This document shows positions 8,730-22,623 of a stretch of 64,000 nt of DNA, in pieces (the first letter of the stretch is position 1; the number at the start of each line of letters is the position of its first letter). The notes beneath the pieces were generated by a model. The model saw only the letters and a list, made by a program, of their open reading frames with translations. It made no database searches and had not been told where the DNA came from. Origin of the DNA: a virus. The stretch lies in IMG/VR virus record IMGVR_UViG_3300045988_124082. One strand, given 5' to 3'. Position numbers and translations under genes: made by a program.

Positions 8730-9026
8730 ATGTGGGAAATTGGAGATAGAGTGGTTGTTACTAAAGCCCCAGGTAGAACAATTGTAGCTAAGCTAGGCTA
8801 CAAGGGAACAGTTATTGATGTAGTAGATACAAGCGTACTTGTTGAATTTGATAAATACATTGGTGGACATAGTGGAAGTTGGAGTTCTCGTAACGGAAAG
8901 TTCGGACATTGTTATTGGCTACATCAGCTTGACGATGCAGACACAATTGGGGCTTATGTAGACTTTGCTTTAAGAGAAGAAGACTGTGTGTGTAAGAAAC
9001 TTAAAAAGAAAAACAACTTCTACTAA
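8730..9026 (+). CDS. NNYY-tail small protein (family I, MWEIGDRV small beta-barrel-like); tail KKKNNFY
   Basis: ORF plus RBS. The GDRVVV...GTV...VEFD...GGH...GHCYW pattern is shared with 7 paralogs. Confidence 0.75.
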   Translation: MWEIGDRVVVTKAPGRTIVAKLGYKGTVIDVVDTSVLVEFDKYIGGHSGSWSSRNGKFGHCYWLHQLDDADTIGAYVDFALREEDCVCKKLKKKNNFY

Positions 9027-9044
9027 AAGAAAGGCAGGGCAAAC

Positions 9045-9344
9045 ATGAGAGAACTTAAACTTGAAGATTGTAAAGTTGGGATGACTCTTAAGCTAAAGGA
9101 AGATTGTCCTTTTAGAAAGTATTGGGAAATAGATCCTAAGGAACCGGTAAAGTGCATTGTCCTAGAGGTGACCGAGAGTCAAATAGATAGCATTTTTGTA
9201 GATATCTACTATAAAAATGGGCGAAAATGTGTCCCGAGGAATTGGTATTTCTATACAGAAGATTCAATAATAGAGGCTAACGGTTATGAACTAATCTCAA
9301 AGAACTTAGAGTATCCGAACAAGCGAAAGAACAATTATTACTAA
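9045..9344 (+). CDS. NNYY-tail small protein (family II, LEDCKVG); tail KRKNNYY
   Basis: ORF plus RBS; N-terminal xEDCxVG motif. Confidence 0.75.
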   Translation: MRELKLEDCKVGMTLKLKEDCPFRKYWEIDPKEPVKCIVLEVTESQIDSIFVDIYYKNGRKCVPRNWYFYTEDSIIEANGYELISKNLEYPNKRKNNYY

Positions 9345-9354
9345 GAGGTGTAAT

Positions 9355-9681
9355 ATGCAGAAAGAAAGAGAAATTCAATTTGAAGATTGTCATATTGGCG
9401 ATGTTTTTAAGTTAGATAGACGCTCGCCATGGGTTGTGGAATGGATAATGGAATCAAATGGATACATCCCTAGAGAAGAAATCACAGCAGAGATTGTACA
9501 TATGATAAATAATGGTGACGTCAAAGAAGTTGGAATAAATGTTTATATAGGTAAAGCTTCATATGATCATTATGATACTTCTTATCTCCGAGAGGGAAGT
9601 AGGTATAAGGAAGACAATCTTGAAATGAATCTTAAAATGAAAAATCGTATCAAAGCAGGAAGAAAGAACAATTATTATTAG
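9355..9681 (+). CDS. NNYY-tail small protein (family II); tail GRKNNYY
   Basis: REIQFEDCHIGDVFKL; RBS GAGGTG. Confidence 0.75.
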   Translation: MQKEREIQFEDCHIGDVFKLDRRSPWVVEWIMESNGYIPREEITAEIVHMINNGDVKEVGINVYIGKASYDHYDTSYLREGSRYKEDNLEMNLKMKNRIKAGRKNNYY

Positions 9682-9691
9682 GAGTGGTTAT

Positions 9692-10000
9692 ATGAAGACA
9701 AAAGAAAGGGAAATTCGATTCGAAGATTGCCATGTTGGAGATGTACTTAGGTTAAAAACAAGATGTCCTTTTGTGGAATTTTACCTTACATCTGAAGAAA
9801 TTCCTGTAGCAAAAGAAGATAAGGTCACCGCAACAGTAGTTCACAAAGAAAAAGATATTCTTGATGTAATAGTACATATAAATGGAAAAAGATGTGAACT
9901 ATATTGGGATTGTTGGCTTACAAGTTCTACGGCTTATCGTGAACATAGTTTTCACATTAATGTCGATTCAAAGATTAATCGAAAGAACAACTATTATTAG
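9692..10000 (+). CDS. NNYY-tail small protein (family II); tail NRKNNYY
   Basis: REIRFEDCHVGDVLRL; RBS AGGAGTGG. Confidence 0.75.
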   Translation: MKTKEREIRFEDCHVGDVLRLKTRCPFVEFYLTSEEIPVAKEDKVTATVVHKEKDILDVIVHINGKRCELYWDCWLTSSTAYREHSFHINVDSKINRKNNYY

Positions 10001-10025
10001 ATATAAGAGAAAGGAAAATAAGACT

Positions 10026-10319
10026 ATGGGATATTTTAAAGTAGGAGATAGAGTAGAAGTTATTAAAAGCCATACCGAGGATTCATGTATTGATCACTAT
10101 GCTCCTGTAGGGCTTAAAGGAACTGTAGTTTATACAGAACCGAGACGTTTGACAAGGCAAATAGCTGTTGAGTTTGATAAGTCTTTTAAAGAAGGACACG
10201 GTTGTGATGGAAAAGTAAGAGGTAAGCGAGGGCAGTGGTATGAATATGATCCACATTCCAATATATATTGGAAAAATTGCTTAAAAATCTTATCCAAAAA
10301 GAAAAACAACTATTACTAA
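10026..10319 (+). CDS. NNYY-tail small protein (family I); tail KKKNNYY
   Basis: Track ORF 9882..10319 trimmed to MGYFKVGDRVEV behind AGAGAAAGGAAAA. The longer form overlaps the previous gene. Confidence 0.7.
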   Translation: MGYFKVGDRVEVIKSHTEDSCIDHYAPVGLKGTVVYTEPRRLTRQIAVEFDKSFKEGHGCDGKVRGKRGQWYEYDPHSNIYWKNCLKILSKKKNNYY

Positions 10320-10365
10320 AGGTATTTCAAAATCAGTGGAGTGATTTTTGTTAATACATGAAGAA

Positions 10366-10391
10366 AGGCGGGATTTATTCCCGTCTTTTTT
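10366..10391 (+). terminator. Rho-independent terminator
   Basis: GGCGGGA-tttat-TCCCGTC (one G-U pair) followed by T6. Confidence 0.7.
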
Positions 10392-10412
10392 CAAAATAGA
10401 AAGGAAATTAAG

Positions 10413-10808
10413 ATGAGCAAATTTAGATATTTAAATGAAGAAGAAACAAAAGTGTTATTACAGGTAACAGAATGGTTAGATAATCATTTCTTTAGTCCAG
10501 AAAATAAATTCGATGAAGAATATTTTGAGAAATACATGAGAGCAATCATTGACAACACAAGAGAAATGTACGAAGCGGTATACATTTGTGTGAACACAAA
10601 ACCTGTAACTGTAATGATTTATGACTATGTGCTTGACATTATTATTACCGATGCACAAGTTGACAAAGAAGATAGAGAGATTGTAGAGATTGCCTTTACA
10701 ACTTGGTTAATAAACATGACAGATAAACCATTTGAAAAGATTTTTGAATGGATGATTGAAGAAAGTTACAGGGGAAGAAAAGGAAGAGAGGATGAAGATA
10801 ATGAATAG
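10413..10808 (+). CDS. Hypothetical protein (no NNYY tail)
   Basis: ORF plus RBS AGAAAGGAAATTAAG. Confidence 0.65.
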   Translation: MSKFRYLNEEETKVLLQVTEWLDNHFFSPENKFDEEYFEKYMRAIIDNTREMYEAVYICVNTKPVTVMIYDYVLDIIITDAQVDKEDREIVEIAFTTWLINMTDKPFEKIFEWMIEESYRGRKGREDEDNE

Positions 10809-10944
10809 ATTTGAAACAGTAATGAAGTTAATTTGTTGGATTGCAGCAGTGACATTGGCATGGATGCACGTTTCAATTGTTGCAGTGATTGCACTTGCAT
10901 TGGTTGGAACTTTTGGAAGCGAGGTTGATTTGAGTGCAAAGTAG
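10801..10944 (+). CDS. Small membrane protein (47 aa)
   Basis: MNRFETVMKLICWIAAVTLAWMHVSIVAVIALALVG. Internal ATG with GGAAGAGAGG upstream. Confidence 0.5.
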   Translation: MNRFETVMKLICWIAAVTLAWMHVSIVAVIALALVGTFGSEVDLSAK

Positions 10945-11266
10945 AGAAACGAGAAGAAAAGTACACTTTGGAGATTGTCATGTAGGCGATGTTTTTGGAA
11001 TAGATAAAGATAGTCCTTATGTACGTAGAAAAAACAGCTTATATGATCTTGAACCATCAGATGTATTAAAGGCAAAAGTTATATATGTAGACAAAGAAGA
11101 TTCCTCCATTCGCATAAAGGCTTATGTAAATAATGAAGAGACTCCAAGATTTTCAGGTTGGCTTTACTCTTTGGTAAACAATTCAGGAATATTACTACAT
11201 AGGTCAGATTTGTTTATTGAGGACAATCTCAGATTCTTGTCAAAGAGAAAGAATAACTACTGGTAA
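10934..11266 (+). CDS. NNYY-tail small protein (family II); tail KRKNNYW
   Basis: GTG start; KVHFGDCHVGDVFGI. Confidence 0.7.
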   Translation: MQSRETRRKVHFGDCHVGDVFGIDKDSPYVRRKNSLYDLEPSDVLKAKVIYVDKEDSSIRIKAYVNNEETPRFSGWLYSLVNNSGILLHRSDLFIEDNLRFLSKRKNNYW

Positions 11267-11280
11267 AGAGAGGTGTAAGG

Positions 11281-11598
11281 ATGGAAGAGAAAAGAAAAGT
11301 ATGCTTCGATGATTGCGAAGTTGGCATGTTTTTTAGGATCGATAAAGACTGTCCATGGATGTATGACAATGAGTGGATGGATGGTTTTGATACATTGACA
11401 AACGCAGATGAGTTAAAAGTTAAAATTATCGATAAAGATGCTGATGATAGCAGTGTTGAGATAGAACTTTGGGCAGATGGTCAAAAGACACATATAACAG
11501 ATTGGCTCTATCAGTTTGAAGACGATCCAGAAGACAGAATTGGAAATAACCTTGAGTTTATATTAAAGAGGAAAAATAGAAAAAATAACTATTGGTGA
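11281..11598 (+). CDS. NNYY-tail small protein (family II); tail NRKNNYW
   Basis: KVCFDDCEVGMFFRI; RBS AGAGAGGTG. Confidence 0.75.
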   Translation: MEEKRKVCFDDCEVGMFFRIDKDCPWMYDNEWMDGFDTLTNADELKVKIIDKDADDSSVEIELWADGQKTHITDWLYQFEDDPEDRIGNNLEFILKRKNRKNNYW

Positions 11599-11608
11599 GG
11601 TGGTGTAA

Positions 11609-11869
11609 ATGGATAATGAATTAAAAATTGGAATGAAGTTCTTAGAAGTAAAAACCGGAATTGTCTGGAAGCTTACAGATATGAATTTTATACAAGAAGG
11701 GTTTTATATAATAGACAAATCATTGTGTTTTCAAGCTGTACGTATAAATACAGACGAGGATGATGTATGGAGAAGTACATCGTCAATGATACCTAAGACA
11801 ATGCTCGAAAGAAGATTGAAAAAAGGCGAATGGAAACAAATAAACAATAGAAAAAACAATTACTATTGA
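11609..11869 (+). CDS. NNYY-tail small protein (family IV); tail NRKNNYY
   Basis: ORF plus RBS GAGGTGGTG. Confidence 0.75.
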   Translation: MDNELKIGMKFLEVKTGIVWKLTDMNFIQEGFYIIDKSLCFQAVRINTDEDDVWRSTSSMIPKTMLERRLKKGEWKQINNRKNNYY

Positions 11870-11891
11870 TTGATAGTAGAAAGGACATATT

Positions 11892-13025
11892 ATGGAGGAT
11901 TTAAGATTAGTAACAACAGAAGAATTTAATGGGGTTGATTGCAACTTTTACAAGGCAGATAGTAACATGTGGATGACAAGAGGACAGATTGGTAAAGCTT
12001 TAGGGTATCACAATCCAAGGATTGCAATCGGGAAAATACATACTGCACATAGAGATAGACTTGATCCACTTTCAGTTGATACCAATTTAGTGTCTACTGA
12101 TGGAAAAGAATATTCTACTTATATATATAATGAAAGAGGCATCTTTGAAATCTGTAGATGGTCAAGACAACCAAAAGCAAATGAATTTATGGATTGGGTA
12201 TGGGACATTATAGAAGCATATAGACGTGGAGAATTCCAGAGAAAGCCTAGGGAAACAGCCATTACACCTGTTGAGAAATTCTTAGATGGAATGCAGAATA
12301 TGTTCTTAGAAATGAGAGAAGAGAACAAAATATTCAAAGATACTGTGTTGAAGATTTTAGAATCTCAGCAAGGACAGGAAGTACAAAAACCTGTTGAAAA
12401 ACTTGAAGCTCAAGAGAAAACTGTTAATCAAGTAAAAACAAAACCAGCTGTTAAGTCAGTTGTTAAGATTGAAAACCCTAGATTAGACACTTGGAAGTTC
12501 GAAATTGGTGCTAAAGCAGCCTATATTGTTTTTAATGGAAATGAATATAAAACAAAAGGAAAAGTATTCTCAGCATGTTATTCAAAAATGAAGAATGTGT
12601 ATGGAATTTGTTGGTCACAGGAAAATAAAGAATACAGGAGAGCTTTCGGATTAGAATCTCAGAGAGGTAGATTAAGTACTTTAGATGTTGTATTCAATGA
12701 TGAAAATTTGAAAGACCTGTTTGACAGTATTCTTGATGGAATATATGAAAACACAAAAAGAAAAGCTATAAAGAGAAATACGGGAACCAATCCAGAAAAA
12801 GATTGGCAATATTATAAAGAAAAGATTCAAAAACTTTGTGAGCAAACAGGCAACAAAAGTTTAGGCGGAAGCTCTATTTACTCAGGAATCATTAGAAAGA
12901 TGGATGTAGATTGGAGCAAGTATGAAACAAACAAAAAGAAAACTGAATTAGTTAAAAAATATCCAGAGTTGTTTGCAGAGTTCTCTAAGACAGCGGATAA
13001 ATATTTAGAGGAGAAGTTAAAATGA
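11892..13025 (+). CDS. Bro-N domain protein (phage antirepressor-like) with a long C-terminal extension
   Basis: N-terminus FNGVDCNFYKADSNMWMTRGQIGKALGY...ERGIFEICRWSRQPKANEFMDWVWDII fits the Bro-N pattern. Confidence 0.7.
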   Translation: MEDLRLVTTEEFNGVDCNFYKADSNMWMTRGQIGKALGYHNPRIAIGKIHTAHRDRLDPLSVDTNLVSTDGKEYSTYIYNERGIFEICRWSRQPKANEFMDWVWDIIEAYRRGEFQRKPRETAITPVEKFLDGMQNMFLEMREENKIFKDTVLKILESQQGQEVQKPVEKLEAQEKTVNQVKTKPAVKSVVKIENPRLDTWKFEIGAKAAYIVFNGNEYKTKGKVFSACYSKMKNVYGICWSQENKEYRRAFGLESQRGRLSTLDVVFNDENLKDLFDSILDGIYENTKRKAIKRNTGTNPEKDWQYYKEKIQKLCEQTGNKSLGGSSIYSGIIRKMDVDWSKYETNKKKTELVKKYPELFAEFSKTADKYLEEKLK

Positions 13026-13141
13026 GTATTAAAATTTTAGGACTTCGTCAAGATTGCTACAAAGTAATCATTGATGGAGTCCTTTTTAAATTCCCAACAG
13101 AACAAGAGTTTTTGGAATTCTTAGAGGAGATTGAGATATGA
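13022..13141 (+). CDS. Unlisted 39-aa ORF MSIKILGLRQDCYKVIIDGVLFKFPTEQEFLEFLEEIEI
   Basis: Below the track size cutoff. ATGA overlaps at both ends (13022-13025 and 13138-13141), which indicates translational coupling. Confidence 0.5.
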   Translation: MSIKILGLRQDCYKVIIDGVLFKFPTEQEFLEFLEEIEI

Positions 13142-13416
13142 GTTTTAGATTTGAAGTAGGTCAAGAGCTGGAATTACACAATAACTTGACGGATATGAAA
13201 GTTTACATGAGATCGGGAACGGTTGTTCGTATCTTAAGTAGAAAAACAAGAATGGATCATACACAAGGGGTTGAGAGAAATCGTTACAAGATTGCATATG
13301 AATTTCATACAAGCTTTTTGGAGATTGGAGATGGTTGTTACCACTGTGGAAAAGACTTTATCTGGGAAGAAGATTTAATTAGAGCTGTCGGTCAACGGAA
13401 GAATAATTATTATTAA
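13138..13416 (+). CDS. NNYY-tail small protein (family IV-like); tail QRKNNYY
   Basis: ORF coupled to the upstream small ORF. Confidence 0.75.
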   Translation: MSFRFEVGQELELHNNLTDMKVYMRSGTVVRILSRKTRMDHTQGVERNRYKIAYEFHTSFLEIGDGCYHCGKDFIWEEDLIRAVGQRKNNYY

Positions 13417-13428
13417 GAGGTGATTAAA

Positions 13429-13698
13429 ATGTGGAAAGTCGGAGATAGAGTCGTAATTATTCAAGATGCTAGAAGAAATTTAGAATCCTTTGTAGGTTTC
13501 AAGGGAACGGTTAACTTTGCAAGTAGAGATGAGATAAGTGTAGTTTTTGACAAATATGTAAACGGTCATGACTTACTAGGGGATTGTAAAAAAGGTTATG
13601 GATGGTTTTTGTCCTCAGACGGAGAGAACGAAAACGAAGCCGAAGCAAATGGAATGAGAGTCAAGAAAATTAACAACAGAAAAAATAATTATTGGTAG
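13429..13698 (+). CDS. NNYY-tail small protein (family I); tail NRKNNYW
   Basis: MWKVGDRVVII...GTV...VVFDKYVNGHD; RBS AAGAGGTGA. Confidence 0.75.
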   Translation: MWKVGDRVVIIQDARRNLESFVGFKGTVNFASRDEISVVFDKYVNGHDLLGDCKKGYGWFLSSDGENENEAEANGMRVKKINNRKNNYW

Positions 13699-13707
13699 GT
13701 GATAGGA

Positions 13708-13980
13708 ATGTGGGAAAAAGGTACAAGAGTTAGAATTATAAAATCAAACAGACTTATGACGCAAGTTGGTATCATGGGCACTGTGGTTTACATACATAAG
13801 GATGGAAATGATCGTTTTATAGTAGAGTTTGACGAACCTATGGATGGGAATTATATGACTACTTTTTGTGATTGCAAACCGAAGTGTTGGTGGTGGTTTG
13901 ATAATGTTCCGGGGAGAGTTGTTGAAACAGATGGTATAACAATTGAAAAAATAGGAAAAAGAAAAAACAATTATTACTAA
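13708..13980 (+). CDS. NNYY-tail small protein (family I); tail KRKNNYY
   Basis: MWEKGTRVRII...GTVVY...VEFDEPMDG...CWWWF. Confidence 0.75.
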   Translation: MWEKGTRVRIIKSNRLMTQVGIMGTVVYIHKDGNDRFIVEFDEPMDGNYMTTFCDCKPKCWWWFDNVPGRVVETDGITIEKIGKRKNNYY

Positions 13981-13992
13981 GGCGGTGAGAAC

Positions 13993-14340
13993 ATGTGGGA
14001 AATTGGAGATAGAGTGGCTGTTACAGACTTAGGCAAAGTCTCTCAAGAGAATTATGGAATTGAAATAAAGATTGGATACAAGGGAACTATTATCAACTTT
14101 TTAAAGATTGATGTCCCATGGAATTCTGATGAGATAATTAAATTCTTAGTAGAGTTTGACGAACCCATGGATGGACATGATGGAAATGATTTCGGTAAAA
14201 TAAGTGGGAAATCGGGACACTGTTGGTGGATGCGTGGAAACCAAGATAGTAATTTAATCAAATGGCGAGATAGCCGGGATTGTGAAGCACCATTAATATG
14301 TAAGAAAATCATGAAGAAAAGGAAAAACAATTTTTACTAA
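13993..14340 (+). CDS. NNYY-tail small protein (family I); tail KRKNNFY
   Basis: MWEIGDRVAV...VEFDEPMDGHDG...GHCWWM. Confidence 0.75.
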   Translation: MWEIGDRVAVTDLGKVSQENYGIEIKIGYKGTIINFLKIDVPWNSDEIIKFLVEFDEPMDGHDGNDFGKISGKSGHCWWMRGNQDSNLIKWRDSRDCEAPLICKKIMKKRKNNFY

Positions 14341-14355
14341 AAGGAGAATAAAGAA

Positions 14356-14946
14356 ATGTTTAAAGTTGGAGATAGTATTAAGATAACAAAAACAAAGATG
14401 GTTAATGATGGAATATTGGTAATAAATGATCGTTATATTCGGTTATGGTCTGTTTATGGAAAAGTAAAAAATCAACAGGAAGACGAAAAAGGTACTAAAA
14501 GCTTTATTGTAACTTTTGATAGTTGGAAAGAATTATTGGATAATGGGGATGGGGTATATAAAGAAGCGACAAATGAATGTGGATTAAATATAGTTATGTC
14601 AGAGAAAGGTGAAATATTTGATTCGGATGGAAAAGTTGTTGTTTGGTGTGAAAAACACTTACCATGGAAAGAGATAGAGGAAGGGGAAACCTATAAAATA
14701 AAACCAAATTCACGCTTATGTAAAGAAGTATTAGAATGGGTTGAATATAAATCAAAAGCTGAATTAAAAATAGACCCGAATGAACTGACTGCTATGGTTA
14801 AACACACAAATATTGCCCAGGGGCTTCTCTTAGCAGTTGTTGTTCCTCTTGTCAATGGTAAGAGAGTTACTGAACGTGGTTGGGAATTGTTTGAAAACAA
14901 TTATTCAGATCAACTTAACATAGATGACAGCATTGAAGAGTTATAA
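14356..14946 (+). CDS. Family I N-terminal domain fused to an extra domain, without the NNYY tail
   Basis: MFKVGDSIKI...; ends DDSIEEL. Confidence 0.7.
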   Translation: MFKVGDSIKITKTKMVNDGILVINDRYIRLWSVYGKVKNQQEDEKGTKSFIVTFDSWKELLDNGDGVYKEATNECGLNIVMSEKGEIFDSDGKVVVWCEKHLPWKEIEEGETYKIKPNSRLCKEVLEWVEYKSKAELKIDPNELTAMVKHTNIAQGLLLAVVVPLVNGKRVTERGWELFENNYSDQLNIDDSIEEL

Positions 14947-14959
14947 ATGATTTTTATTA

Positions 14960-15147: not shown

Positions 15148-15513
15148 ATGAAAGTAGTAATCGCAGAAAACAGATTAGAGGTAGTAACAGGAATCAAAAA
15201 GGCAGACTTCGACAAACAGGTAACAGACATGACTGTTAAAGATGACAAAGGAAATGTGACATTTAAGTTAAAAGTTGGAGAACAGCCTAACATTTCAGTA
15301 CTTGGTTTAACTTGCAACACAACTGTTGACAAAGAGTTAGCGGTAACAATGATTCTTCCAATGGAAACAGATGTTGAAGAAATCAAAATCAAGTATGGTA
15401 AGGCTTTAGTAGCAGCTGAAAAGAATCTGAAAGTAATTGCTGACAGAATCGTAGCAGATACAGAAGCAGTTGATGGAATCTTTGCAGACACAGAAGAAGC
15501 AACAGAAGCCTAG
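15148..15513 (+). CDS. Small protein A1 (121 aa), paralog of 16018..16362
   Basis: Strong RBS AAAAGGAGAAAC. Conserved LGLTCN(T/S)T(V/I)DK motif. Confidence 0.75.
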   Translation: MKVVIAENRLEVVTGIKKADFDKQVTDMTVKDDKGNVTFKLKVGEQPNISVLGLTCNTTVDKELAVTMILPMETDVEEIKIKYGKALVAAEKNLKVIADRIVADTEAVDGIFADTEEATEA

Positions 15514-15569
15514 GAACAGCCTTGAGTAAAGGTAAAACAATATAATCTAATATTAATTCATTCACTTAT

Positions 15570-15597
15570 AGGACGTCTCCCAAGGGCGTCCTTTTTA
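15570..15597 (+). terminator. Rho-independent terminator
   Basis: AGGACG-tctcccaagg-CGTCCT followed by T5. Confidence 0.7.
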
Positions 15598-15641
15598 GTT
15601 ACACATTTACATATTCAGGAGATTAAAAGGAGAACAAAATT

Positions 15642-15881
15642 ATGATGATCAATGTAACATTAGCAACAACAGCAGGTAAAAGTCTTGTAACAGTAGAAGG
15701 AAACCAGACTCCATCACAAGTACTTGAAGAGAACAGCGTAGCAACAACAGGAGCTACTGTATCACTCAATATGAGACCACTTGCAGATAATGAAAAAGGT
15801 AAAACTTTTGAAGAATTAGGATGCACAGATGGTGATTCCGTAATGTTATCAGCAGTTGTAAAAGCAGACTCAGCAATGTAG
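15642..15881 (+). CDS. Small protein B1 (79 aa), ThiS/MoaD/ubiquitin-like beta-grasp candidate
   Basis: The pattern V-TL....VTVEG..TPSQVLEE......GATVSLN.....L..LGCTDGDSVMLSAVVKA resembles sulfur-carrier/Ubl proteins. There is no C-terminal GG (it ends KADSAM). Confidence 0.7.
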   Translation: MMINVTLATTAGKSLVTVEGNQTPSQVLEENSVATTGATVSLNMRPLADNEKGKTFEELGCTDGDSVMLSAVVKADSAM

Positions 15882-16017
15882 TAGTAAATCAAATTAGATA
15901 GTAAATATTGAAAATCATAACGCCATGGGAAGTAATAAATTAGATGGGACAGGATGATTTGAGATTTTACATATAAAGAAACTTAAAAAAATCAATGAAT
16001 TAAAAAGGAGAACAAAC

Positions 16018-16362
16018 ATGAAAGTATCATTAAAAGAAAACGCATTAGAAATCAACACAGAAATCAAAAAAGCTGACTTTGACAAGAAAGTAAGCAACAT
16101 GACAGTAACAAACAAAGATGGTGTACCAACATTTGTTTTACGCTGTGGAAGAGAGGGAGAAATTTCTCAGTTAGGACTTACATGTAACTCTACAATTGAC
16201 AAGAACTTAGCTGTAACAATTGTGTTGCCTCCAGAAACAAAAATGGAAGACATCAAAGTTGAATATGGTAAAGCCCTTGTAAATGCAGAAAAGGGATTAA
16301 AAGTCCTTGCTGGGAGAATTGAAGCCGATACGAAAGCTATTGATGCGATTTTTGCGGAATAG
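16018..16362 (+). CDS. Small protein A2 (114 aa), paralog of A1
   Basis: RBS AAAAGGAGAACAAAC; aligns along its whole length with A1. Confidence 0.75.
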   Translation: MKVSLKENALEINTEIKKADFDKKVSNMTVTNKDGVPTFVLRCGREGEISQLGLTCNSTIDKNLAVTIVLPPETKMEDIKVEYGKALVNAEKGLKVLAGRIEADTKAIDAIFAE

Positions 16363-16467
16363 AAAGTAAAATAATATCTAATGTAATTTCACAACAAACA
16401 GGGACAGTCAACCCAATAAGTCCTACGAGTAACTGTTAACCAAGCAAAATATTTTCTCTTTCGACTC

Positions 16468-16510
16468 AAAAGCTTTGCAGGTAGGGGTTGGACAGCAAAG
16501 CTTTTGTTTT
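16468..16510 (+). terminator. Rho-independent terminator
   Basis: AAAAGCTTTGC...GCAAAGCTTTT followed by a T run. Confidence 0.75.
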
Positions 16511-16559
16511 AGTAACTATAGAACACAAGTATTAAAAGGATATAAAGGAGAACAAAATT

Positions 16560-16799
16560 ATGATGATCAATGTAACATTAGCAACAACAGCAGGTAAAAG
16601 TCTTGTAACAGTAGAAGGAAACCAGACTCCAAGTGAAGTGTTAGCTGAAAATAATGTAGCAACAACAGGAGCTACAATCTCTATGAATATGAGACCATTA
16701 AGTGTAGCTGAATTAACTGATACATTTGAAGAGCTTGGATGTAATGATGGTGATTCTATCATGTTATCAGCTGTAGTTAAAGCCGATTCTGCTTTCTAG
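16560..16799 (+). CDS. Small protein B2 (79 aa), paralog of B1 (beta-grasp candidate)
   Basis: The first 24 codons plus the RBS are 100 percent identical at nucleotide level to B1; the remainder has diverged. Ends KADSAF. Confidence 0.7.
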   Translation: MMINVTLATTAGKSLVTVEGNQTPSEVLAENNVATTGATISMNMRPLSVAELTDTFEELGCNDGDSIMLSAVVKADSAF

Positions 16800-16901: not shown

Positions 16902-18626
16902 ATGGAAGAAAGAAAATTTAAAACAAATGACTACGTGGTAGTAAAGAATTGGGATGAATTGGTTGAAGAATATGGATTGGTTGATCCCGAATCTGTTAGA
17001 GAACAGATGAGGAATGATGAGGATTGTTATTGGTCAGAAGAAGAGATTAATGAATACAATCCAGAAATCATTAATGTTCCATGGGGAGCAAGAAAAGCAA
17101 TGATTGATGAACTTGTAACTATGGGATTGATGAAGGTCAAAGAATATGGAGAAGATGGAAGTGTCCAGCTGGAAAGCGATACTTACATTGACAGTATTAT
17201 CCCAGAAGAGATTTTACAGCCTGTAAGCGAAGATGAGGTTAAGAATTATATCTTTTGGCTTAATAAAAAAGATGATGATTTTGTAATGCAGGACTACGAT
17301 TTTGCTCAAGCAAATGGATTATTAACTTATGTAGGATTGGTCAATGGAAGTATTGATTTTATCGGAGGAAACAAAGGTAATGAATTAATTGCTTATTTCT
17401 ATGCAGCATCAATTTTAAGATCAATTGATTTTAATGAGGGAGTTACAGAATATCTAAGCCATTGTCATGAAGTTAGTGTTCATACATTTGACCATTTTTA
17501 CACTGACAGAAAATCACATTTGCAGATTGTAGCGATAAAAGATGTTTCTGAGGATGGAGAAGAAGAACTTGTTAATATGTGGACAGAAAGAGGCTGGGAA
17601 GAAGTTGAATTCCACAACGATAAAGTTTTTAAGGTGTTTACTCATCCTGAGCAGAAAGGAACCACAATTTTCTTAAATGGAGAAAAAGAAGATTATAAAA
17701 AAGACTTTGAAGCTTATGAACTGATCATGCAGATTGTTAGCCATGTTTATGGAGATACAATGCAGGATGTTTTAGAAGTTGTTAGCAATAGAGATAGATC
17801 AGAAGCTATGAATATGATCCGTGATATTTTCTCAGAAGCGGATAAGCAGTATGTGAAAATCAAAAACAAAATTAATATTGAAAACTTCCTAAAGGTTGCA
17901 TCTAAAGGTCAGCAGAAACATTTAGAACGAGAAGTTCAGAATAATCAGGACAGAGTTAATAGCTATAAAGATAATCTCAGACACTCTCTTAAAACATTAA
18001 GAGAGTCACAAGAAAGACTCTTCGGATATTTACATATGAAAGATGATTCCCAGTTCAATGAAGTAAGAGAAATGTTAAACATGATGGGTGATGATTTAAG
18101 TGATTTTAGGTGTAATCCTAGCGGTGATTGGTTTAGCTTTGCAATCGTTCAGCCATTGTTATATTGGGATGATGATATTTACGAAAGAAACTTTGATGAT
18201 GAATACTTTGAAGAAGAGGCTGAATATGAAAAGACGAAAAAAGTATTCGACAAAATCTTTAAGACAAGAGAATACACTTTGTATCTACAGCAAGCAATAA
18301 TGATTGACTTGGTCAATAATAAACCAGTTGCAATGAGAGATTATAATTATACAAATGATATGTATATTCCTAATCCACATTTCCATGAGTTTAACTGTTG
18401 GGGAGCAAATGAAGCAAATTTAATTGAAGCGATTTCAAACAGAGATTATATGTCAATTTTCAATCTTGTTAGATCAGCTGTCGCTGGAATTTCTTTATAT
18501 GATACTTCTGTAGTAGGAGCTTTCTTTAATTATTGTGAAGACAGATTTACAAATAAAAAATGTCTTAAAGTTCCAGGAAGAGAAGAATTTATTTCATTCA
18601 AAGAAGCAAGAGCATTGGAGGATTAA
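16902..18626 (+). CDS. Large hypothetical protein (574 aa); possible E2-like Cys segment near the C-terminus (speculative)
   Basis: ORF plus RBS. Followed 3 nt later by the JAB gene. C-terminal IPNPHFHEFNCWG loosely recalls the E2 HPN...C motif. Confidence 0.7.
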   Translation: MEERKFKTNDYVVVKNWDELVEEYGLVDPESVREQMRNDEDCYWSEEEINEYNPEIINVPWGARKAMIDELVTMGLMKVKEYGEDGSVQLESDTYIDSIIPEEILQPVSEDEVKNYIFWLNKKDDDFVMQDYDFAQANGLLTYVGLVNGSIDFIGGNKGNELIAYFYAASILRSIDFNEGVTEYLSHCHEVSVHTFDHFYTDRKSHLQIVAIKDVSEDGEEELVNMWTERGWEEVEFHNDKVFKVFTHPEQKGTTIFLNGEKEDYKKDFEAYELIMQIVSHVYGDTMQDVLEVVSNRDRSEAMNMIRDIFSEADKQYVKIKNKINIENFLKVASKGQQKHLEREVQNNQDRVNSYKDNLRHSLKTLRESQERLFGYLHMKDDSQFNEVREMLNMMGDDLSDFRCNPSGDWFSFAIVQPLLYWDDDIYERNFDDEYFEEEAEYEKTKKVFDKIFKTREYTLYLQQAIMIDLVNNKPVAMRDYNYTNDMYIPNPHFHEFNCWGANEANLIEAISNRDYMSIFNLVRSAVAGISLYDTSVVGAFFNYCEDRFTNKKCLKVPGREEFISFKEARALED

Positions 18627-18629: not shown

Positions 18630-19595
18630 ATGAGAAAAATTAGAATTGAAGAATTAGATGCACAGAGATTAGTACAAGAAGTGATAGCGAAAGCTATCAC
18701 TTCTATTGGTTTAACCCCAGAAAAATTACAGATGGAAATTAATCCTAATGTAAAACTTAAAGAAGAAGAGAAAATTGAGATTGCTTTTTCAGAAATGGCA
18801 GAAAAGAAAATGTATTATCTCATTCACGAATGTGAAAAAGAAATTGGTTGGCATGGACTTGTCAGTCGAAGCGAAAATGGATTCTATGTAGAAGACATTA
18901 TTGTATTCCCACAGGAAGTTACAGGAGCTACTGTAACATCAGATGATGAGCTATATCCAACTTGGATGCTTAGTCAGCCAGATGAGATTTACAATAAGAT
19001 TAGATTTCATGGACATTCACATGTAAATATGGCAACAAGTCCAAGTGGTGTAGATGATACGTATCAGGAGCAGATTATTCAACAGTTTATGTCTAGTCCA
19101 CTTGATGAAAATAATTTTTACATATTCGGCATTTTCAACAAAAAGGGAAGCTATTGGTTAAATATTTATGACATTTATAACAATAAATTTTATGAGACAG
19201 ATGATATTAGTTATGTTTTTTATCAGTCAGATGAACAGGCATGGGCTAAAGAACAGATTAAAGAGAATGTAAAAGAAGAAGTAGCTGTAAAAACAAGTGG
19301 ATATTATTCTAATGGATATGGTTATAGAGGCGGTGGATACGGAACAGAAGAGCTGTATGATACTTGGAAAAAGAACTATGATAAAAACAAAGGCAAAGAG
19401 AAGCCAAAAAAAGATGAAGCAGAGTTGCGAAAAGAATTAAGTGGAGCAATTATTGCAGATTTAACACCTCCAAAATGGCATAGTAAATGGAGTAAATGTT
19501 TACAGAGGATGATTAGCTGTGATGAAAGTCTTGATGATTTAATTGAAGAGTATTGTATTACTTATCCAGATTATAGTGGAACAAAAAAGAAATAG
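18630..19595 (+). CDS. JAB/MPN+ (JAMM) metallopeptidase domain protein
   Basis: Complete JAMM signature: E in HECEKEIGWHG, then HGHSHVNMATSPSGVDD, which fits H-x-H-x7-S-x2-D. Confidence 0.8.
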   Translation: MRKIRIEELDAQRLVQEVIAKAITSIGLTPEKLQMEINPNVKLKEEEKIEIAFSEMAEKKMYYLIHECEKEIGWHGLVSRSENGFYVEDIIVFPQEVTGATVTSDDELYPTWMLSQPDEIYNKIRFHGHSHVNMATSPSGVDDTYQEQIIQQFMSSPLDENNFYIFGIFNKKGSYWLNIYDIYNNKFYETDDISYVFYQSDEQAWAKEQIKENVKEEVAVKTSGYYSNGYGYRGGGYGTEELYDTWKKNYDKNKGKEKPKKDEAELRKELSGAIIADLTPPKWHSKWSKCLQRMISCDESLDDLIEEYCITYPDYSGTKKK

Positions 19596-19607
19596 AGGAG
19601 GATGATT

Positions 19608-20285
19608 ATGAATACAAGTAAAGTTTTAGAATTTTTTGATGCACAGACATTAGTTAAAAAACCAGTTCATGTAATTGGATGTGGAGCAATTGGCTCAAAT
19701 GTCGCAGAACAGCTTACAAGATTAGGAGTCTCAGTGATTCATCTCTGGGATTACGATCATGTTGAGCCTAAAAATGTAACTAATCAGATGTTCTTTGATG
19801 GGGATATCGGAAAAGCTAAGGTAGATGCAATTGAAAATTTGTGTAAGTCAATTAATCCACAGATTAAAATAATCAAACATGAAAGAGGGATTGATGATCC
19901 ATATATTCTTACAGGATATGTATTCTTATGTGTAGATAATATTGAGCTTAGAAAGAAAATCGTAGAGGCCAATAAGTTAAATCCAAACTGTATTGCGTTC
20001 TTTGATTTTAGAATGAGACTTACAGATGCACAGCATTATTTTGCTGATTGTTCAGTTAAAGAACAGGTTGAAAACTTAATTGGAACCATGAATTTTACCC
20101 ATGAAGAAGCGGCTGCAGCAACTCCTACAAGTGCTTGTGGAGTGGAATTAAGTGTATGCTATACAGTTAAGAATATTGTTTGTTATGGAATTGCAAATTT
20201 TGTTAACTTTTGCCTAGGGAATGAACCAAAACAGATGATTATTACAGATATGAAGACAATGGATGTGACAGTATTCCCTATGTAA
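19608..20285 (+). CDS. ThiF/MoeB/E1-like adenylyltransferase
   Basis: VHVIGCGAIGSNVAEQLTRLGV..IHLWDYDHVEPKNVTNQ: a Rossmann GxGxxG followed by the D-x-D-x-V-E-x-x-N motif. ATG 19608 is preferred over 19602 on RBS spacing. Confidence 0.8.
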   Translation: MNTSKVLEFFDAQTLVKKPVHVIGCGAIGSNVAEQLTRLGVSVIHLWDYDHVEPKNVTNQMFFDGDIGKAKVDAIENLCKSINPQIKIIKHERGIDDPYILTGYVFLCVDNIELRKKIVEANKLNPNCIAFFDFRMRLTDAQHYFADCSVKEQVENLIGTMNFTHEEAAAATPTSACGVELSVCYTVKNIVCYGIANFVNFCLGNEPKQMIITDMKTMDVTVFPM

Positions 20286-20291
20286 GAGGTG

Positions 20292-20567
20292 ATGATCTTG
20301 ATAGAAGAAAAATATAAAGCGGTACCTAAAAATTATAAGGGGATTGTAAGACTTAAGCCAACAATAGCACGTTTCCGCCCTTATTACCATGCGTATGTTA
20401 AGTTGGAGGAGGGCTATCACTATACGGGTAATCCAGATCACACAGTATACGTTGAGTTGTACAAGACTTATCAAGATTTAACAAACAATGGTAGGTGTAT
20501 AAGGGAAGGCCTTATAGAAGAAAGAAGCTTATATGTTCCAAGAGAACGTAAGAATAATTATTGGTAG
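20292..20567 (+). CDS. NNYY-tail small protein (family III, VPKxYKG); tail ERKNNYW
   Basis: Starts 4-7 nt after the E1 stop; the start codon is ambiguous (GTG 20289, ATG 20292 or TTG 20298). KAVPKNYKGIVRL...GNPDHTVYV. Confidence 0.7.
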   Translation: MILIEEKYKAVPKNYKGIVRLKPTIARFRPYYHAYVKLEEGYHYTGNPDHTVYVELYKTYQDLTNNGRCIREGLIEERSLYVPRERKNNYW

Positions 20568-20575
20568 GTGAGAAT

Positions 20576-20848
20576 ATGTGGGAAAAAGGTACAAGAGTTA
20601 AGATAATAGGGGGAGCAAAAATCGGCTTAATGGGGACAGTGGTTGTTAAGTGCACAGAAACCCCTGTCAATGACATTAGAGATCGCTTCTTAGTAGAGTT
20701 TGACGAATCCATGGGTGGACATAGTGGAAATGGAGCTTATGAAGGAAAGCGGGGACATTGTTGGTGGTTTGATTATTGTTTAGAAAAGGTTACTATCACA
20801 GATGGCATAAGCATTGAGCAAGTCAAAAGGAAAAATAATTTTTACTAG
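20576..20848 (+). CDS. NNYY-tail small protein (family I); tail KRKNNFY
   Basis: MWEKGTRVKII...VEFDESMGGHSG...GHCWWF. Confidence 0.75.
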   Translation: MWEKGTRVKIIGGAKIGLMGTVVVKCTETPVNDIRDRFLVEFDESMGGHSGNGAYEGKRGHCWWFDYCLEKVTITDGISIEQVKRKNNFY

Positions 20849-20861
20849 GGGGGGTGATTAG

Positions 20862-21077
20862 ATGTGGGAAGTTGGTGACAGAGTAGTAGTTAGTAGTGCA
20901 TTTAGGCCTAAAGTGAAAGGGACAGTCATTGCTATAGATGCGGAATCTACAATGCCTGTATTGGTTAAAATAGGTGGAATAGGAACAGGTATGTGGTTCT
21001 ATGAAAATGGTGATGATTTAGTTTGGAGTGACATTACTTGCACACGAGTGAAAAAGAGGAAAAACAATTATTATTGA
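20862..21077 (+). CDS. NNYY-tail small protein (family I, short); tail KRKNNYY
   Basis: MWEVGDRVVV...GTVIAID. Confidence 0.75.
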   Translation: MWEVGDRVVVSSAFRPKVKGTVIAIDAESTMPVLVKIGGIGTGMWFYENGDDLVWSDITCTRVKKRKNNYY

Positions 21078-21093
21078 GAAAGGATGATGACAG

Positions 21094-21381
21094 GTGTTTA
21101 AGGTTGGAGATAGGATCGTACTAACAGAAGAAAGCCGTCAAAGCTGCAATATATTTCATGAACATCCGGGAGATACTGCAACGGTTATTGGAGTTTCGAA
21201 AGTATCAAGTAGGTCTGATTATGAATGTGTTTTAGAATTTGATAGACATATTGGTGGACATGATGGGTTAACCGATGCCACAGGCAAGAACGGTCATTGT
21301 GTTATCTATTATTTTGATTCAACACAGTGGGATAAGTATTTTAGGAAAATCCAAAGTAAACGTAAGAATAATTATTATTAA
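21094..21381 (+). CDS. NNYY-tail small protein (family I); tail KRKNNYY
   Basis: GTG start; FKVGDRIVL...LEFDRHIGGHDG...GHCVIYY. Confidence 0.75.
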   Translation: MFKVGDRIVLTEESRQSCNIFHEHPGDTATVIGVSKVSSRSDYECVLEFDRHIGGHDGLTDATGKNGHCVIYYFDSTQWDKYFRKIQSKRKNNYY

Positions 21382-21396
21382 GAAAGAGGTGATCGT

Positions 21397-21713
21397 ATGC
21401 CAGAGGATGTAAAGTACCGTCCAGTTCCTAAAGGGTATACAGGTGTTTTTAGGCTAAGAGAAGATACGACGTCCTTAGCCAATGAGTTTTATGGAGCATG
21501 GGGCATTATAGACGACAAATTTTTAATCGATGAAGATTATTATAATGAAGAAAATGAATTTAAGGGAGATCCCGATCATGTAATTCGAGTAAGTTTTTAT
21601 CCTAGCCTTTTAGATCTGCAAAGAGGTGAAATCTTATTAGAGAAGTAGGAAGAGTGTCTGGGACAGAAAAGTATTGTTATATTCCTTTCAAAAGAAAAAA
21701 TAATTACTATTAA
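21397..21713 (+). pseudogene. Frameshifted family III NNYY-tail gene (or recoding site)
   Basis: Frame 0 stops at 21646-21648. Frame +2 continues ...EVGRVSGTEKYCYIPFKRKNNYY-stop (21711-21713) and aligns with its paralogs. The shift window is about 21628-21648. Confidence 0.6.
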
Positions 21714-21728
21714 GAAAGAGGTAATCAA

Positions 21729-22043
21729 ATGGAAAATAATGGTATATATCCTCCAGTACCTAAGGGATACAAGGGTGTTTTTAGAGTTAGACCTGATATG
21801 ATAGGATCAGATAATATGTTCTATGAAGCATATGGTATTACAGGAAAAGGTATTATAGAAGACATTGATTATTTAGAAGGCCAAGGAGAATTTACAGGAA
21901 ATCCACATCATATAATTAAAGCCATTTTTTATCAAACCTATGAAGACTTAAAGAACAGAGAATGTATGATACAAGGAAGGCCTGTTAAAATAAAAGAACA
22001 CTTACTTTACCCCGTGTCAAACAAGAAGAACAATTACTGGTAG
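21729..22043 (+). CDS. NNYY-tail small protein (family III); tail NKKNNYW
   Basis: YPPVPKGYKGVFRV...GNPHHIIKA. Confidence 0.75.
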   Translation: MENNGIYPPVPKGYKGVFRVRPDMIGSDNMFYEAYGITGKGIIEDIDYLEGQGEFTGNPHHIIKAIFYQTYEDLKNRECMIQGRPVKIKEHLLYPVSNKKNNYW

Positions 22044-22053
22044 GTGATTTAAG

Positions 22054-22323
22054 ATGATAGACGCAAAAGATATTAAAGAGGGTATGAAAATTAAGTATAA
22101 TGGTTGGGAATGGACTATAACAAAAGTGTTTGCAAAATATAATAATGTCTTGGATCTTCGGAATGATTGTATTAAAAAAATCATTGATCAAGATAGTTCA
22201 TTGATTTGGATTGAAGCATCGAAGAGACGCTTTGTGCCTGAATCTATGACTATGGAGTGGTTCTTTAAAGAACTGAAATATGGAACAATAAAGATTTTAA
22301 ATCGTAAAAATAATTATTATTGA
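22054..22323 (+). CDS. NNYY-tail small protein (family IV); tail NRKNNYY
   Basis: ORF plus RBS TAGGTGA. Confidence 0.75.
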   Translation: MIDAKDIKEGMKIKYNGWEWTITKVFAKYNNVLDLRNDCIKKIIDQDSSLIWIEASKRRFVPESMTMEWFFKELKYGTIKILNRKNNYY

Positions 22324-22332
22324 GGTGATGTG

Positions 22333-22623
22333 ATGTATTTAGAAGACATTAAAGTTGGTCAGAAAGTGAACTATCGAGGTCATTCCTACATAATAACTAA
22401 AAATGTTGTAAAGTATCGGGGAATAATTAGACCTTATTATTCTACATATTCGTATATCAAGGAAAGTACAAATTGTCATAGATCACGAATGTATTTTCGA
22501 AGAGTAGAAAATAAAAATGAACCGATTGATGGATTTTGGTTATTATATGACGAGATTGAAGAAAAAATGGATCGAGGGCTTATTAAATTTTTGAACATGT
22601 CAAAGAAAAATAATTATTATTAA
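22333..22623 (+). CDS. NNYY-tail small protein (family IV); tail SKKNNYY
   Basis: ATG 5 nt after GAGGTG. Confidence 0.75.
   Translation: MYLEDIKVGQKVNYRGHSYIITKNVVKYRGIIRPYYSTYSYIKESTNCHRSRMYFRRVENKNEPIDGFWLLYDEIEEKMDRGLIKFLNMSKKNNYY

Follow-up and report, generated by a model that had tools for sequence, protein, structure and literature searches.

A C-terminal hexapeptide conserved as a peptide on apparently unrelated small proteins of a phage lineage

Twenty genes for small proteins (71–115 aa) in the 64-kb stretch of phage DNA that we analysed (hereafter the window) share the ending [RK]-K-N-N-[YF]-[YW]-COOH, and this hexapeptide is under strong purifying selection as a peptide. Because the tail is conserved at that level, it is most likely an address tag. 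We consider it probable that it acts as a lineage-specific short linear recognition motif, which would be bound and read by one common partner that co-evolves with it.

The original prediction placed twelve such endings between 8730 and 14340, and all twelve are present there on the + strand. Eight more genes ending in [RK]KNN[YF][YW]-stop lie at 20289–22623 on the same strand. The tailed genes are as follows.

8730..9026, + strand: T01, family A (SH3-like), end KKKNNFY
9045..9344, + strand: T02, family B (EDCxVG), end KRKNNYY
9355..9681, + strand: T03, family B, end GRKNNYY
9692..10000, + strand: T04, family B, end NRKNNYY
10026..10319, + strand: T05, family A, end KKKNNYY
10934..11266, + strand: T06, family B, end KRKNNYW
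11281..11598, + strand: T07, family B, end NRKNNYW
11609..11869, + strand: T08, IKxGMK type, a separate BLAST cluster, end NRKNNYY
13138..13416, + strand: T09, a separate BLAST cluster, end QRKNNYY
13420..13698, + strand: T10, family A, end NRKNNYW
13699..13980, + strand: T11, family A, end KRKNNYY
13993..14340, + strand: T12, family A, end KRKNNFY
20289..22623, + strand: array 2, eight tailed genes between ThiF and RT
20289–20567, 20576–20848, 20862–21077 and 21094–21381, + strand: array 2 genes 1–4
21397–21713, 21729–22043, 22054–22323 and 22330–22623, + strand: array 2 genes 5–8

Compared with related contigs, the array 2 gene at 21397–21713 lacks one nucleotide, which splits it and puts its tail in another frame. 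Untailed genes are interspersed as claimed: a Bro-N protein (11892–13025), a 62-aa hydrophobic ORF (10756–10944) and a 196-aa protein (14356–14946). The next ribosome-binding site was also said to follow immediately after each stop; this holds for most tailed genes but not for 10026–10319, after which there is a 93-nt gap.

Across the whole window, NN[YF][YW] stands directly before a stop codon twenty times on the + strand and is internal only once; on the − strand the counts are zero and one. The chance expectation from amino-acid composition is 2.2e-5 such endings per 100 ORFs. With twenty terminal occurrences against one internal, chance is excluded as the origin of the shared tails, and the tailed ORFs are real genes.

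With the tails removed, the bodies of the proteins fall into eleven BLAST clusters, and the hhalign probability between families is at most 1.1%. The claim that several unrelated families share one tail agrees with this result, the bodies appearing to form at least five to seven families without detectable mutual homology in what are shallow family alignments. A single divergent paralogue family for all bodies is unsupported by the same BLAST and hhalign results, though very remote ancestry could escape alignments of this depth. Family A is the largest family. Its MWEIGDRV-type members had been credited with an SH3-like look, which is borne out for T05 by a match to Pfam SH3_12 (PF18129) at 30.1 bits (gathering cut-off 26.2). 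T10 (23.6), T01 (21.6) and T12 (14.3) score under the 26.2-bit cut-off, and the other members have no match. Judged by these profile scores, family A is probably a divergent SH3-like small barrel. The domain has 2149 representative homologues, often as tandem repeats within larger proteins (2–6 copies per polypeptide in other genomes), and the tail ending is absent from all retrieved multidomain family A proteins (42 of those listed). Since the domain is common elsewhere in tail-less form, the tail is an addition particular to this lineage.

For family B, an AF2 model of T02 has four strands plus helices, and tail residues 94–99 have pLDDT below 50; the tail is thus predicted to be disordered and to lie outside the folded domain. 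The model had no significant fold match in the PDB. PDB sequence searches with family A, the JAB peptidase and the 574-aa protein described below found nothing, as did megablast against INPHARED phages. A PHROGs search returned only two weak matches, both for T01.

Shared C-terminal motifs in phage arrays sometimes prove to be the next gene's ribosome-binding site; they should be read as peptide signals only after a check at the codon level. The tail might be a by-product of a 3′ nucleotide signal (a ribosome-binding or standby site for the next gene, or a recombination joint) or of a nascent-peptide effect on termination or re-initiation. The next start codon does lie within 10–20 nt of the tails, and in two control phage loci (L065 and L092), as partly in L212, L134 and L147, the tail codons contain the downstream gene's Shine–Dalgarno sequence (SD) or start codon. 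In this window, however, the SD (GAGGTG, GGTGAT and similar) is located 3′ of the stop codon. The tail codons vary synonymously, as predicted (Arg AGA/AGG/CGA/CGT/CGG; Lys AAA/AAG; Asn AAT/AAC; Tyr TAT/TAC), and all three stop codons are used. Position by position, synonymous codon choice is that of the genome (Fisher p = 0.04–1), with Arg alternating between AGR and CGN. Among 524 pairs of close relatives, nonsynonymous and synonymous counts are 27/148 in the tail (ratio 0.18) and 4870/1719 in the fifty-four codons preceding it (ratio 2.8); the synonymous rates are similar, but nonsynonymous changes accumulate 20 times more slowly in the tail than in these fast-evolving bodies. The codon usage and the substitution counts agree in upholding the earlier claim of selection at the peptide level. 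The tail is also retained on the gene with the 93-nt gap downstream (10026–10319), and coupling is equally tight for untailed genes of the same arrays. Since the lineages share a conserved ribosome, a nascent-peptide effect should be the same in all of them. A DNA or RNA signal as the explanation is already largely refuted, and we regard by-product origins of either kind as very improbable. Specifically, a ribosome-binding site or nucleotide element as the source of the tail is rejected for this window, where the tail codons carry no SD or start codon for the next gene and synonymous sites are unconstrained.

The source is an abundant gut phage. The lineage has genomes of ~130 kb and its host is probably Anaerostipes; the tailed genes lie on the early or replication side of the genome. 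The tail is retained in relatives with as little as 48–65% identity in the 574-aa protein, and in a more distant lineage it is shortened to KRKNNY. Gene content varies between strains, with four extra tailed genes in L004. When IMG/VR was scanned for the tail pattern, ~100 of 113 matches were not at ORF ends, and the pattern stood at ORF ends only in contigs of this lineage, in both cases among the matches listed. A common C-terminus of AT-rich genomes is rejected on this distribution, and by the same scan the tail is confined to one lineage.

The two tailed arrays flank a conserved island with the following genes.

15148..16799, + strand: two gene pairs (a ~120-aa protein, then a 79-aa Ubl candidate)
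16902..18626, + strand: 574-aa protein, fold not recognised
18630..19595, + strand: JAB/JAMM-type peptidase
19602..20285, + strand: ThiF-type E1-like adenylyltransferase
22639..23940, + strand: UG27 reverse transcriptase (RT), directly downstream of array 2

By sequence pattern, the 79-aa proteins are candidate ThiS-like Ubls, with a conserved KADSA-type end (...AVVKADSAM and ...AVVKADSAF). The 574-aa protein is the fastest-diverging component of the island, and its AF2 model is poor (pLDDT 55.6). The JAB motif E...HxH...S..D is invariant in an alignment of eighteen sequences drawn from 199 homologues. ThiF, at 227 aa, matches PADLOC E1-E2 models (6e-16), though no E2 domain was detected, and TIGR03736 at 34 bits (cut-off 144.75). 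Apart from this weak ThiF match, no PRTRC model matched any of the eight island and RT proteins scanned, and ParB is absent from the cassette. The RT matches PADLOC RT_UG27 over its full length (1.3e-164, profile positions 2–419 of 420), and the 519 nt that follow it (23941–24459) contain three long hairpins (folding z = −7.7). This full-length profile match together with adjacent structured non-coding hairpins places 22639–23940 in the UG27 RT systems.

Ubl substrates of E1 enzymes have a beta-grasp fold and an exposed C-terminal Gly or Gly-Gly for adenylation. The tailed proteins were rejected as ubiquitin-like modifiers: they end in Y, W or F without Gly, family A is SH3-like and family B has no significant fold match. 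In the MccA/MccB pathway, a short precursor ending in Asn is adenylated by a ThiF-like enzyme with an N-terminal peptide-clamp domain. Peptide adenylation of this type was likewise rejected for proteins of 71–115 aa with aromatic ends, and since the Pfam ThiF match begins at residue 15, ThiF has no room for an extra N-terminal domain of this sort.

We surveyed further loci chosen solely for a JAB homologue, with 10 kb on each side, and defined lineages by clustering ThiF at 70% identity (n = 29); given this selection and the 10-kb limit, the sample itself accounts for part of the adjacency of array and island. In six of the twenty-nine lineages there are arrays whose small proteins share a C-terminal motif of their own. 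About three quarters of the island-bearing lineages lack an array, so tails are not needed for the island to function. The motifs include EC.C[ED]SLL, F..EL..LL, K.FN[GS]LE, F.GV[ED][ED]LI and ELD.FF. The cleanest alternative tail is EC.C[ED]SLL-stop, with a nonsynonymous/synonymous ratio of 0.21 in the tail and 1.69 in the body. Where gene order was examined (the NNYY lineage, L134, L147, L159, L170 and L212), tailed genes interleave with island genes, lying upstream, between JAB and ThiF, between ThiF and RT, or after the RT. Every array-bearing lineage examined has SH3-like members of the GD.V type. Clustering all proteins of eighty-three loci revealed no array-lineage-specific protein cluster or receptor family. 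Among ninety-eight unrelated viral loci, only two arrays with shared tails were found, both explained by the next gene's ribosome-binding site or start codon.

Some motifs of the other lineages overlap the next gene's SD (the GG of LLGG, the LE of FNGLE). The ubiquitin-like LLGG tail of L212, first taken as support for E1/JAB processing, was discarded on this ground: its GG is part of the next gene's GGAGG SD, and L212 genes with the SD after the stop have tails ending in GI or DN instead. Broader sampling of UG27 loci without JAB yielded only one extra lineage (L226–L229); no array was seen in L226, the member examined, and neither JAB nor ThiF was matched in L226, L227 or L229.

For a link of the tails to ThiF and JAB, whose co-occurrence the original prediction proposed to check, the evidence is mixed. 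In its favour, several lineages have tailed arrays interleaved with the ThiF/JAB/RT island. Against it, no island protein is better conserved than ThiF, yet the tails change completely from one lineage to the next, and the island has its own KADSA-ended Ubl. In addition, contig IMGVR_UViG_3300029610_000357 is a natural deletion variant without the Ubl pairs, 574-aa protein, JAB and ThiF that retains eighteen intact tailed genes adjoining the UG27 RT.

The idea of a common recognition tag is the best fit to these data, and is strengthened by the similar arrays of related phages, whose tails differ from lineage to lineage. Through the tail, many variable and exchangeable bodies would be connected to a single shared partner, which would co-evolve with the phage lineage. 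We infer that this partner is most likely a phage-encoded protein of the adjacent island (Ubl, 574-aa protein, JAB, ThiF or UG27 RT), among which the fast-diverging 574-aa protein would be a better candidate reader than the conserved ThiF. Binding might result in recruitment, modification, turnover or assembly. More tentatively, the tailed arrays could supply exchangeable adaptors or substrates to a phage system not described before, made up of Ubl, ThiF, JAB, large fast-evolving protein and UG27 RT, in which the lineage-specific tail would dock each small, quickly diversifying domain onto the large protein or another island component. Such a system would direct one enzymatic activity at many host targets, much like the F-box and PRANC receptor families but through a six-residue tag.

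The tail could instead be a ligand for a host factor. It might act as a C-terminal degron or adaptor-binding peptide through which a host AAA+ or PDZ protease keeps early proteins short-lived, or it might bring a host machine to whatever target the body binds. C-terminal degrons (ssrA, MuA, lambda cII) and aromatic-ended PDZ ligands are established. The C-terminus modelled here as exposed and disordered, with a free carboxylate, is conserved to its last residue; the genes lie on the early side of the genome, and the variant without Ubl, JAB and ThiF keeps its tails intact. If conserved host hubs were the partners, however, one would expect the tails to resemble each other, and those of related lineages are wholly different (basic-aromatic, acidic-hydrophobic, CxC). 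We also know of no degron that the motif matches, and it is unlike the LAA type of ssrA or the RRKKAI type of MuA, the classes to which ClpX or SspB binds. On balance, a host ligand is possible but doubtful. A role in packaging or assembly, with the tail loading a variable set of small proteins into the capsid or some other phage structure, is improbable. Such tags have precedents in the T4 internal proteins and in encapsulin cargo peptides, the tagged proteins are unrelated, fast-evolving and variable between strains (the additional genes of L004), and the body ratio of ~2.8 would suit arms-race cargo; yet the genes form an early, replication-side block far from any structural genes seen, and the arrays cluster with the Ubl/JAB/ThiF/RT island rather than with morphogenesis genes. 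The tails might also link the array proteins to each other, by insertion into a neighbour's SH3-like barrel or by tail–tail zipping, and so build non-covalent chains like the tandem-repeat proteins of other phages. The SH3-like fold of family A with its tandem copies elsewhere, the GD.V-type members in all array lineages examined and the lack of an array-lineage-specific receptor cluster fit this picture, which is otherwise purely inferential; tail chemistry varies widely across lineages, and we judge self-association to be decidedly improbable.

If the tail is an address tag, its six residues give direct access to some twenty early proteins of this abundant gut phage that have yet to be characterised, and to the conserved Ubl/E1/JAB island beside UG27 RTs. 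In the available parts of the literature, UG27 systems of gut phages consist of an RT, two accessory proteins and an ncRNA array (10.1101/2021.12.02.470933; 10.64898/2026.09.22.753630), and the full-length UG27 RT followed by a hairpin region in our window resembles what is described there. The available parts of these two papers describe no tailed small-protein arrays; the text of neither mentions ThiF, JAB or ubiquitin, and that of 10.64898/2026.09.22.753630 does not mention 'C-terminal'. Our literature search on the tail motif and on a phage system of ThiF, JAB and RT found nothing relevant, and we found no published description of the tails or of the island–UG27 link.

Several known systems resemble parts of this arrangement. 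PRTRC-type cassettes of mobile elements also combine a small ThiF-family E1, a JAB peptidase and a small Ubl without a Gly-Gly end; unlike them, the island has no ParB, gives only the weak ThiF model match and is tied to an RT. In Type II CBASS, an E1-like enzyme (the E1-E2 protein Cap2) and a JAB peptidase (Cap3) both handle the very C-terminal end of the CD-NTase, which is not a beta-grasp Ubl. CD-NTase tails end in small residues, whereas two aromatic residues end the tail here, no E2 was detected and ThiF conservation does not track the tail changes. The internal proteins of T4 (IPI-III, Alt) carry an N-terminal capsid-targeting sequence of ~10 residues that is cleaved by the prohead protease and directs them to the scaffold core, and they are found in virions. 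There too, a short terminal tag is common to unrelated hypervariable small proteins of plastic loci, and the tag is conserved while the bodies diversify; the tag here is at the extreme C-terminus and has no evident protease site or link to capsid genes. In poxviruses, ankyrin proteins bind host Skp1 through a PRANC/F-box-like C-terminal domain, helical and ~40 residues long. The phage tail is a disordered six-residue peptide with a candidate partner, and the neighbouring E1 and JAB are phage-encoded, but in both cases viral proteins with variable binding domains carry a common C-terminal motif, which in poxviruses leads into one ubiquitin-type machine and here belongs to arrays that flank a Ubl/E1/JAB island. 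One invariant tail on unrelated, rapidly changing bodies within each lineage, with a different tail in the next, is an evolutionary pattern like that of viral receptor and adaptor families in arms races, and would be new for phages.

Twelve plus-strand ORFs between 8730 and 14340 (array 1) carry the shared C-terminal tail as originally predicted, and every one of them ends in [RK]KNN[YF][YW] directly before the stop codon. Eight further tailed ORFs lie at 20289-22623 (array 2). Across the whole 64-kb window, NN[YF][YW] occurs on the plus strand at twenty ORF ends and once internally, and at no minus-strand ORF end. The chance expectation for such endings, based on amino-acid composition and 100 long plus-strand ORFs, is 2.2e-5. 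The sole internal plus-strand copy (window 19110, ENNFYIFG) falls within the conserved [FY]YIF.I.NK block of a JAB peptidase and is probably a coincidence. One tailed gene (21397-21713) has its tail out of frame through a 1-nt deletion in an A-run compared with related contigs. The change, at about 21630, is GAAAATC to GAAATC relative to the related loci L001 and L003, and may reflect a genuine mutation or an error in sequencing the homopolymer. The untailed genes among array 1 match the earlier description too: one encodes a Bro-N protein, one is a small hydrophobic ORF, and one encodes a protein of 196 aa (14356-14946). This last protein has an N-terminus like that of the SH3-like bodies of family A (MFKVGDSIKI) and ends in ELFENNYSDQLNIDDSIEEL; its internal NNY might be what is left of a tail that read-through has extended. 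The 196-aa gene is missing from a more distant relative (L014).

The tail is conserved as a peptide and not as a nucleotide element. Its synonymous codons follow genome-wide usage at every position (Fisher P = 0.64, 0.036, 1.0, 1.0, and 0.22 at five positions), its arginines appear as AGA, AGG, CGA, CGT, or CGG, and each of the three stop codons is used. The next gene has its Shine-Dalgarno site downstream of the stop codon, outside the tail. We counted substitutions across 524 close-relative pairs from the window and fifteen related loci; as these pairs are non-independent, the following figures are descriptive and carry no formal test. The six tail codons show 27 nonsynonymous and 148 synonymous differences (ratio 0.18), as opposed to 4870 and 1719 in the 54 codons before the tail (ratio 2.83). 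Per-codon synonymous rates are alike (0.047 in the tail, 0.061 in the body). Because the counts differ in this way, the bodies are seen to change rapidly while the tail stays constant as a peptide. A conserved 3′ nucleotide element, which would have left the synonymous sites of the tail invariant, is thus not what we find, and the central inference of the original prediction, selection on a peptide shared across unrelated bodies, is borne out. No Rfam family matched within the arrays, which show no enrichment of promoter-like sites either.

That the bodies belong to unrelated families also holds at the level of detectable homology. With tails removed, profile-profile comparison of four family alignments gave a between-family homology probability of at most 1.1 per cent, and the 198 distinct tailed proteins of this lineage fall into eleven clusters by BLAST single linkage, seven of them represented in the window. 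One member of family A exceeds the curated cut-off for Pfam SH3_12, and the others fall under it. A full search with HMMER, over 1.84 billion representatives, returned 2149 sequences related to the family A domain, many of them proteins of 200-900 aa in which it is repeated two to six times in tandem. Of the forty-two multidomain relatives examined among the matches listed, none ends in the tail, and single-domain relatives without it were also found; the tail was therefore added onto a widespread domain. Elsewhere this domain (GDRV...GTV...VEFD...GGH...GHCWW) is found in tandem in several hundred larger proteins, which often contain additional domains (P0167-P0304). The AF2 model of family B (EDCxVG bodies) has four strands plus helices, with a mean pLDDT of 68.7 and tail residues below 50, and no significant match in the PDB. 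Since several bodies open with a similar h-x-x-G-D/M-x-h strand, very remote common ancestry is conceivable. Even under shared ancestry, the contrast between tail and body needs a functional explanation.

The window covers the early or replication-side part of a phage genome of ~130-175 kb, and its genes include DnaB, a split PolIII-alpha, NrdD, and a YorF-like protein. Identical small proteins occur in MAGs labelled Anaerostipes hadrus and Caudoviricetes sp. The tail is kept in all relatives found. These include nine IMG/VR contigs whose 574-aa protein (coordinates below) is 91-100 per cent identical, as well as contigs at 65, 49, and 48 per cent identity, with minor variants such as KKNNYW, TKNNYW, and KTNNYY. 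In a more distant lineage (JAB 48 per cent identical) it is shortened to KRKNNY. From a set of 5.8 billion proteins we retrieved 120 family A homologues; the ending NN[YF][YW] is present in 112 of them, and the other eight look truncated. A degenerate DNA pattern for the tail matched at least 113 IMG/VR stretches; among the matches listed, it sits at ORF ends only in contigs of this lineage, so the tail is not a general feature of AT-rich C-termini, an objection that had been anticipated. In the related locus L011, the stretch matching roughly window 28-48 kb holds many accessory genes (among them Thg1-like, Band_7, NUDIX, LPD11, PemK-type toxin, tyrosine recombinase, and P22 antirepressor-like). 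At window 30140-30289, an Rfam tRNA match (43.7 bits) spans 150 nt and the full 71-position model, implying a large insertion; ARAGORN called no tRNA there.

The two arrays flank a gene island, and array 2 separates its ThiF gene from a reverse transcriptase (RT):

15148-16799: two pairs, each a ~120-aa protein and a 79-aa protein ending in AVVKADSA plus one variable residue
16902-18626: 574-aa protein with no detectable family
18630-19595: JAB/JAMM peptidase; E...HxH...S..D motif invariant in an 18-sequence homologue alignment
19602-20285: ThiF E1-like enzyme, 227 aa (Pfam 1e-21)
22639-23940: RT, full-length UG27 member (PADLOC RT_UG27 1.3e-164)
23941-24459: 519 nt 3′ of the RT with three long hairpins (fold z = -7.7)
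after the hairpins, within 22639-25775: a 178-aa ORF, then a 265-aa ORF

From its sequence, we read the 79-aa protein as a candidate ThiS-like ubiquitin-like protein (Ubl). The hairpins match the ncRNA descriptions of phage-borne UG27 systems in two papers (10.1101/2021.12.02.470933; 10.64898/2026.09.22.753630), and by position the 178-aa and 265-aa ORFs are probably the small and large accessory proteins published there. The segment 22639-25775 is a complete-looking UG27 retroelement. ThiF, JAB, and ubiquitin do not appear in the searched text of either paper. We gathered eighty-three viral loci (L132-L214) with the presence of a JAB homologue as the sole criterion. The island is conserved across these JAB-selected loci: the ~120-aa protein, large protein, JAB, ThiF, and RT are near-universal, and the island lies directly 5′ of the RT in nearly all of them. 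The candidate Ubl varies from 75 to 80 aa, ending in K.[DS][NS]A, and the large protein from 450 to 580 aa.

These loci form twenty-nine lineages (ThiF clusters at 70 per cent identity). Scanning them for C-terminal segments common to small ORFs identified arrays with their own shared motif in six lineages, while mid-protein control segments showed almost no sharing:

NNYY or NNY: lineage of the window
EC.C[ED]SLL-stop: 12 loci, 4-12 genes per locus
[DE]F[ES].[EQ]L..LL: one lineage
K.FN[GS]L[EI], with 0-7 extra residues after: one lineage
F.GV[ED][ED]LI: one lineage
ELD.[FM]F: one lineage

EC.C[ED]SLL is a clean second case of a peptide tail. Its serine switches between TCN and AGY and its leucine between CTN and TTR, the Shine-Dalgarno site lies past the stop codon, the nonsynonymous/synonymous ratio reaches only 0.21 in the tail against 1.69 in the body, and two unrelated body families bear it. 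The tailed proteins of its twelve loci (L155-L200; e.g. L159 13860-20197) have two conserved cysteines just before the C-terminus. In those array lineages for which gene order was examined, tailed genes are intermixed with island genes: they occur upstream of the island, between JAB and ThiF, in the interval from ThiF to the RT, or past the RT. Among ninety-eight unrelated viral loci (788 kb), we found only two arrays with shared tails, both on the minus strand (L065 and L092). Their motifs, LNARKEE and ESYE, are common to adjacent small genes, and we rejected them as peptide signals, as they are encoded by the AAGGAG Shine-Dalgarno site or overlapping ATGAA start of the next gene. Such motifs are a trap for motif hunters, and the same caveat covers parts of some motifs in the array lineages. 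A seemingly ubiquitin-like LLGG tail was likewise discarded as evidence of E1/JAB processing: its GG is the GGAGG site of the next gene.

One invariant tail per lineage, common to unrelated families and wholly different between lineages (basic-aromatic, acidic-hydrophobic, or CxC), is the pattern expected of a tag co-evolving with one receptor. We therefore favour, with moderate confidence, a recognition tag that is specific to the lineage and would be read by one common partner. The leading alternative is a ligand for a host protease or adaptor, but tails that differ by lineage argue against a conserved host hub. We rank a packaging signal next and self-association of the tailed proteins after it. 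A cis effect on translation comes last, and the lineage differences again argue against an effect within the conserved ribosome.

With low confidence, we place the partner of the tag in the adjacent island, where the tailed proteins would serve it as adaptors or substrates. Of the island proteins, ThiF shows the strongest conservation (93 to 40 per cent identity across lineages) and the candidate Ubl keeps its K-x-[DS]-[NS]-A end throughout, so the Ubl, rather than the tails, is probably what ThiF serves. Divergence is fastest in the large protein (from 65 down to about 20 per cent identity), which on that basis would be the best candidate reader; the AF2 model of the 574-aa protein was of poor quality and matched no known fold. 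Arrays are missing from about three quarters of island lineages, and the eighty-three loci yielded no protein cluster specific to array lineages. Furthermore, IMGVR_UViG_3300029610_000357 (L217) has lost window 14188-20687 (~6.5 kb) and keeps eighteen intact tailed genes beside its UG27 RT. Two family A paralogues recombined at an FLVEFDE stretch common to both (L046 1173-1499), which produced the deletion. It removed the 196-aa gene, both Ubl pairs, the 574-aa protein, JAB, ThiF, and one tailed gene, and left a chimeric gene with a premature stop. Together, these three observations weigh against strict dependence of the tails on the island.

The literature searched holds no description of the tag, the arrays, or the association of the island with UG27. 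Reading the tail as a tag is directly testable and of high interest, and the general principle, diverse proteins marked by one terminal tag, is already known from other systems.
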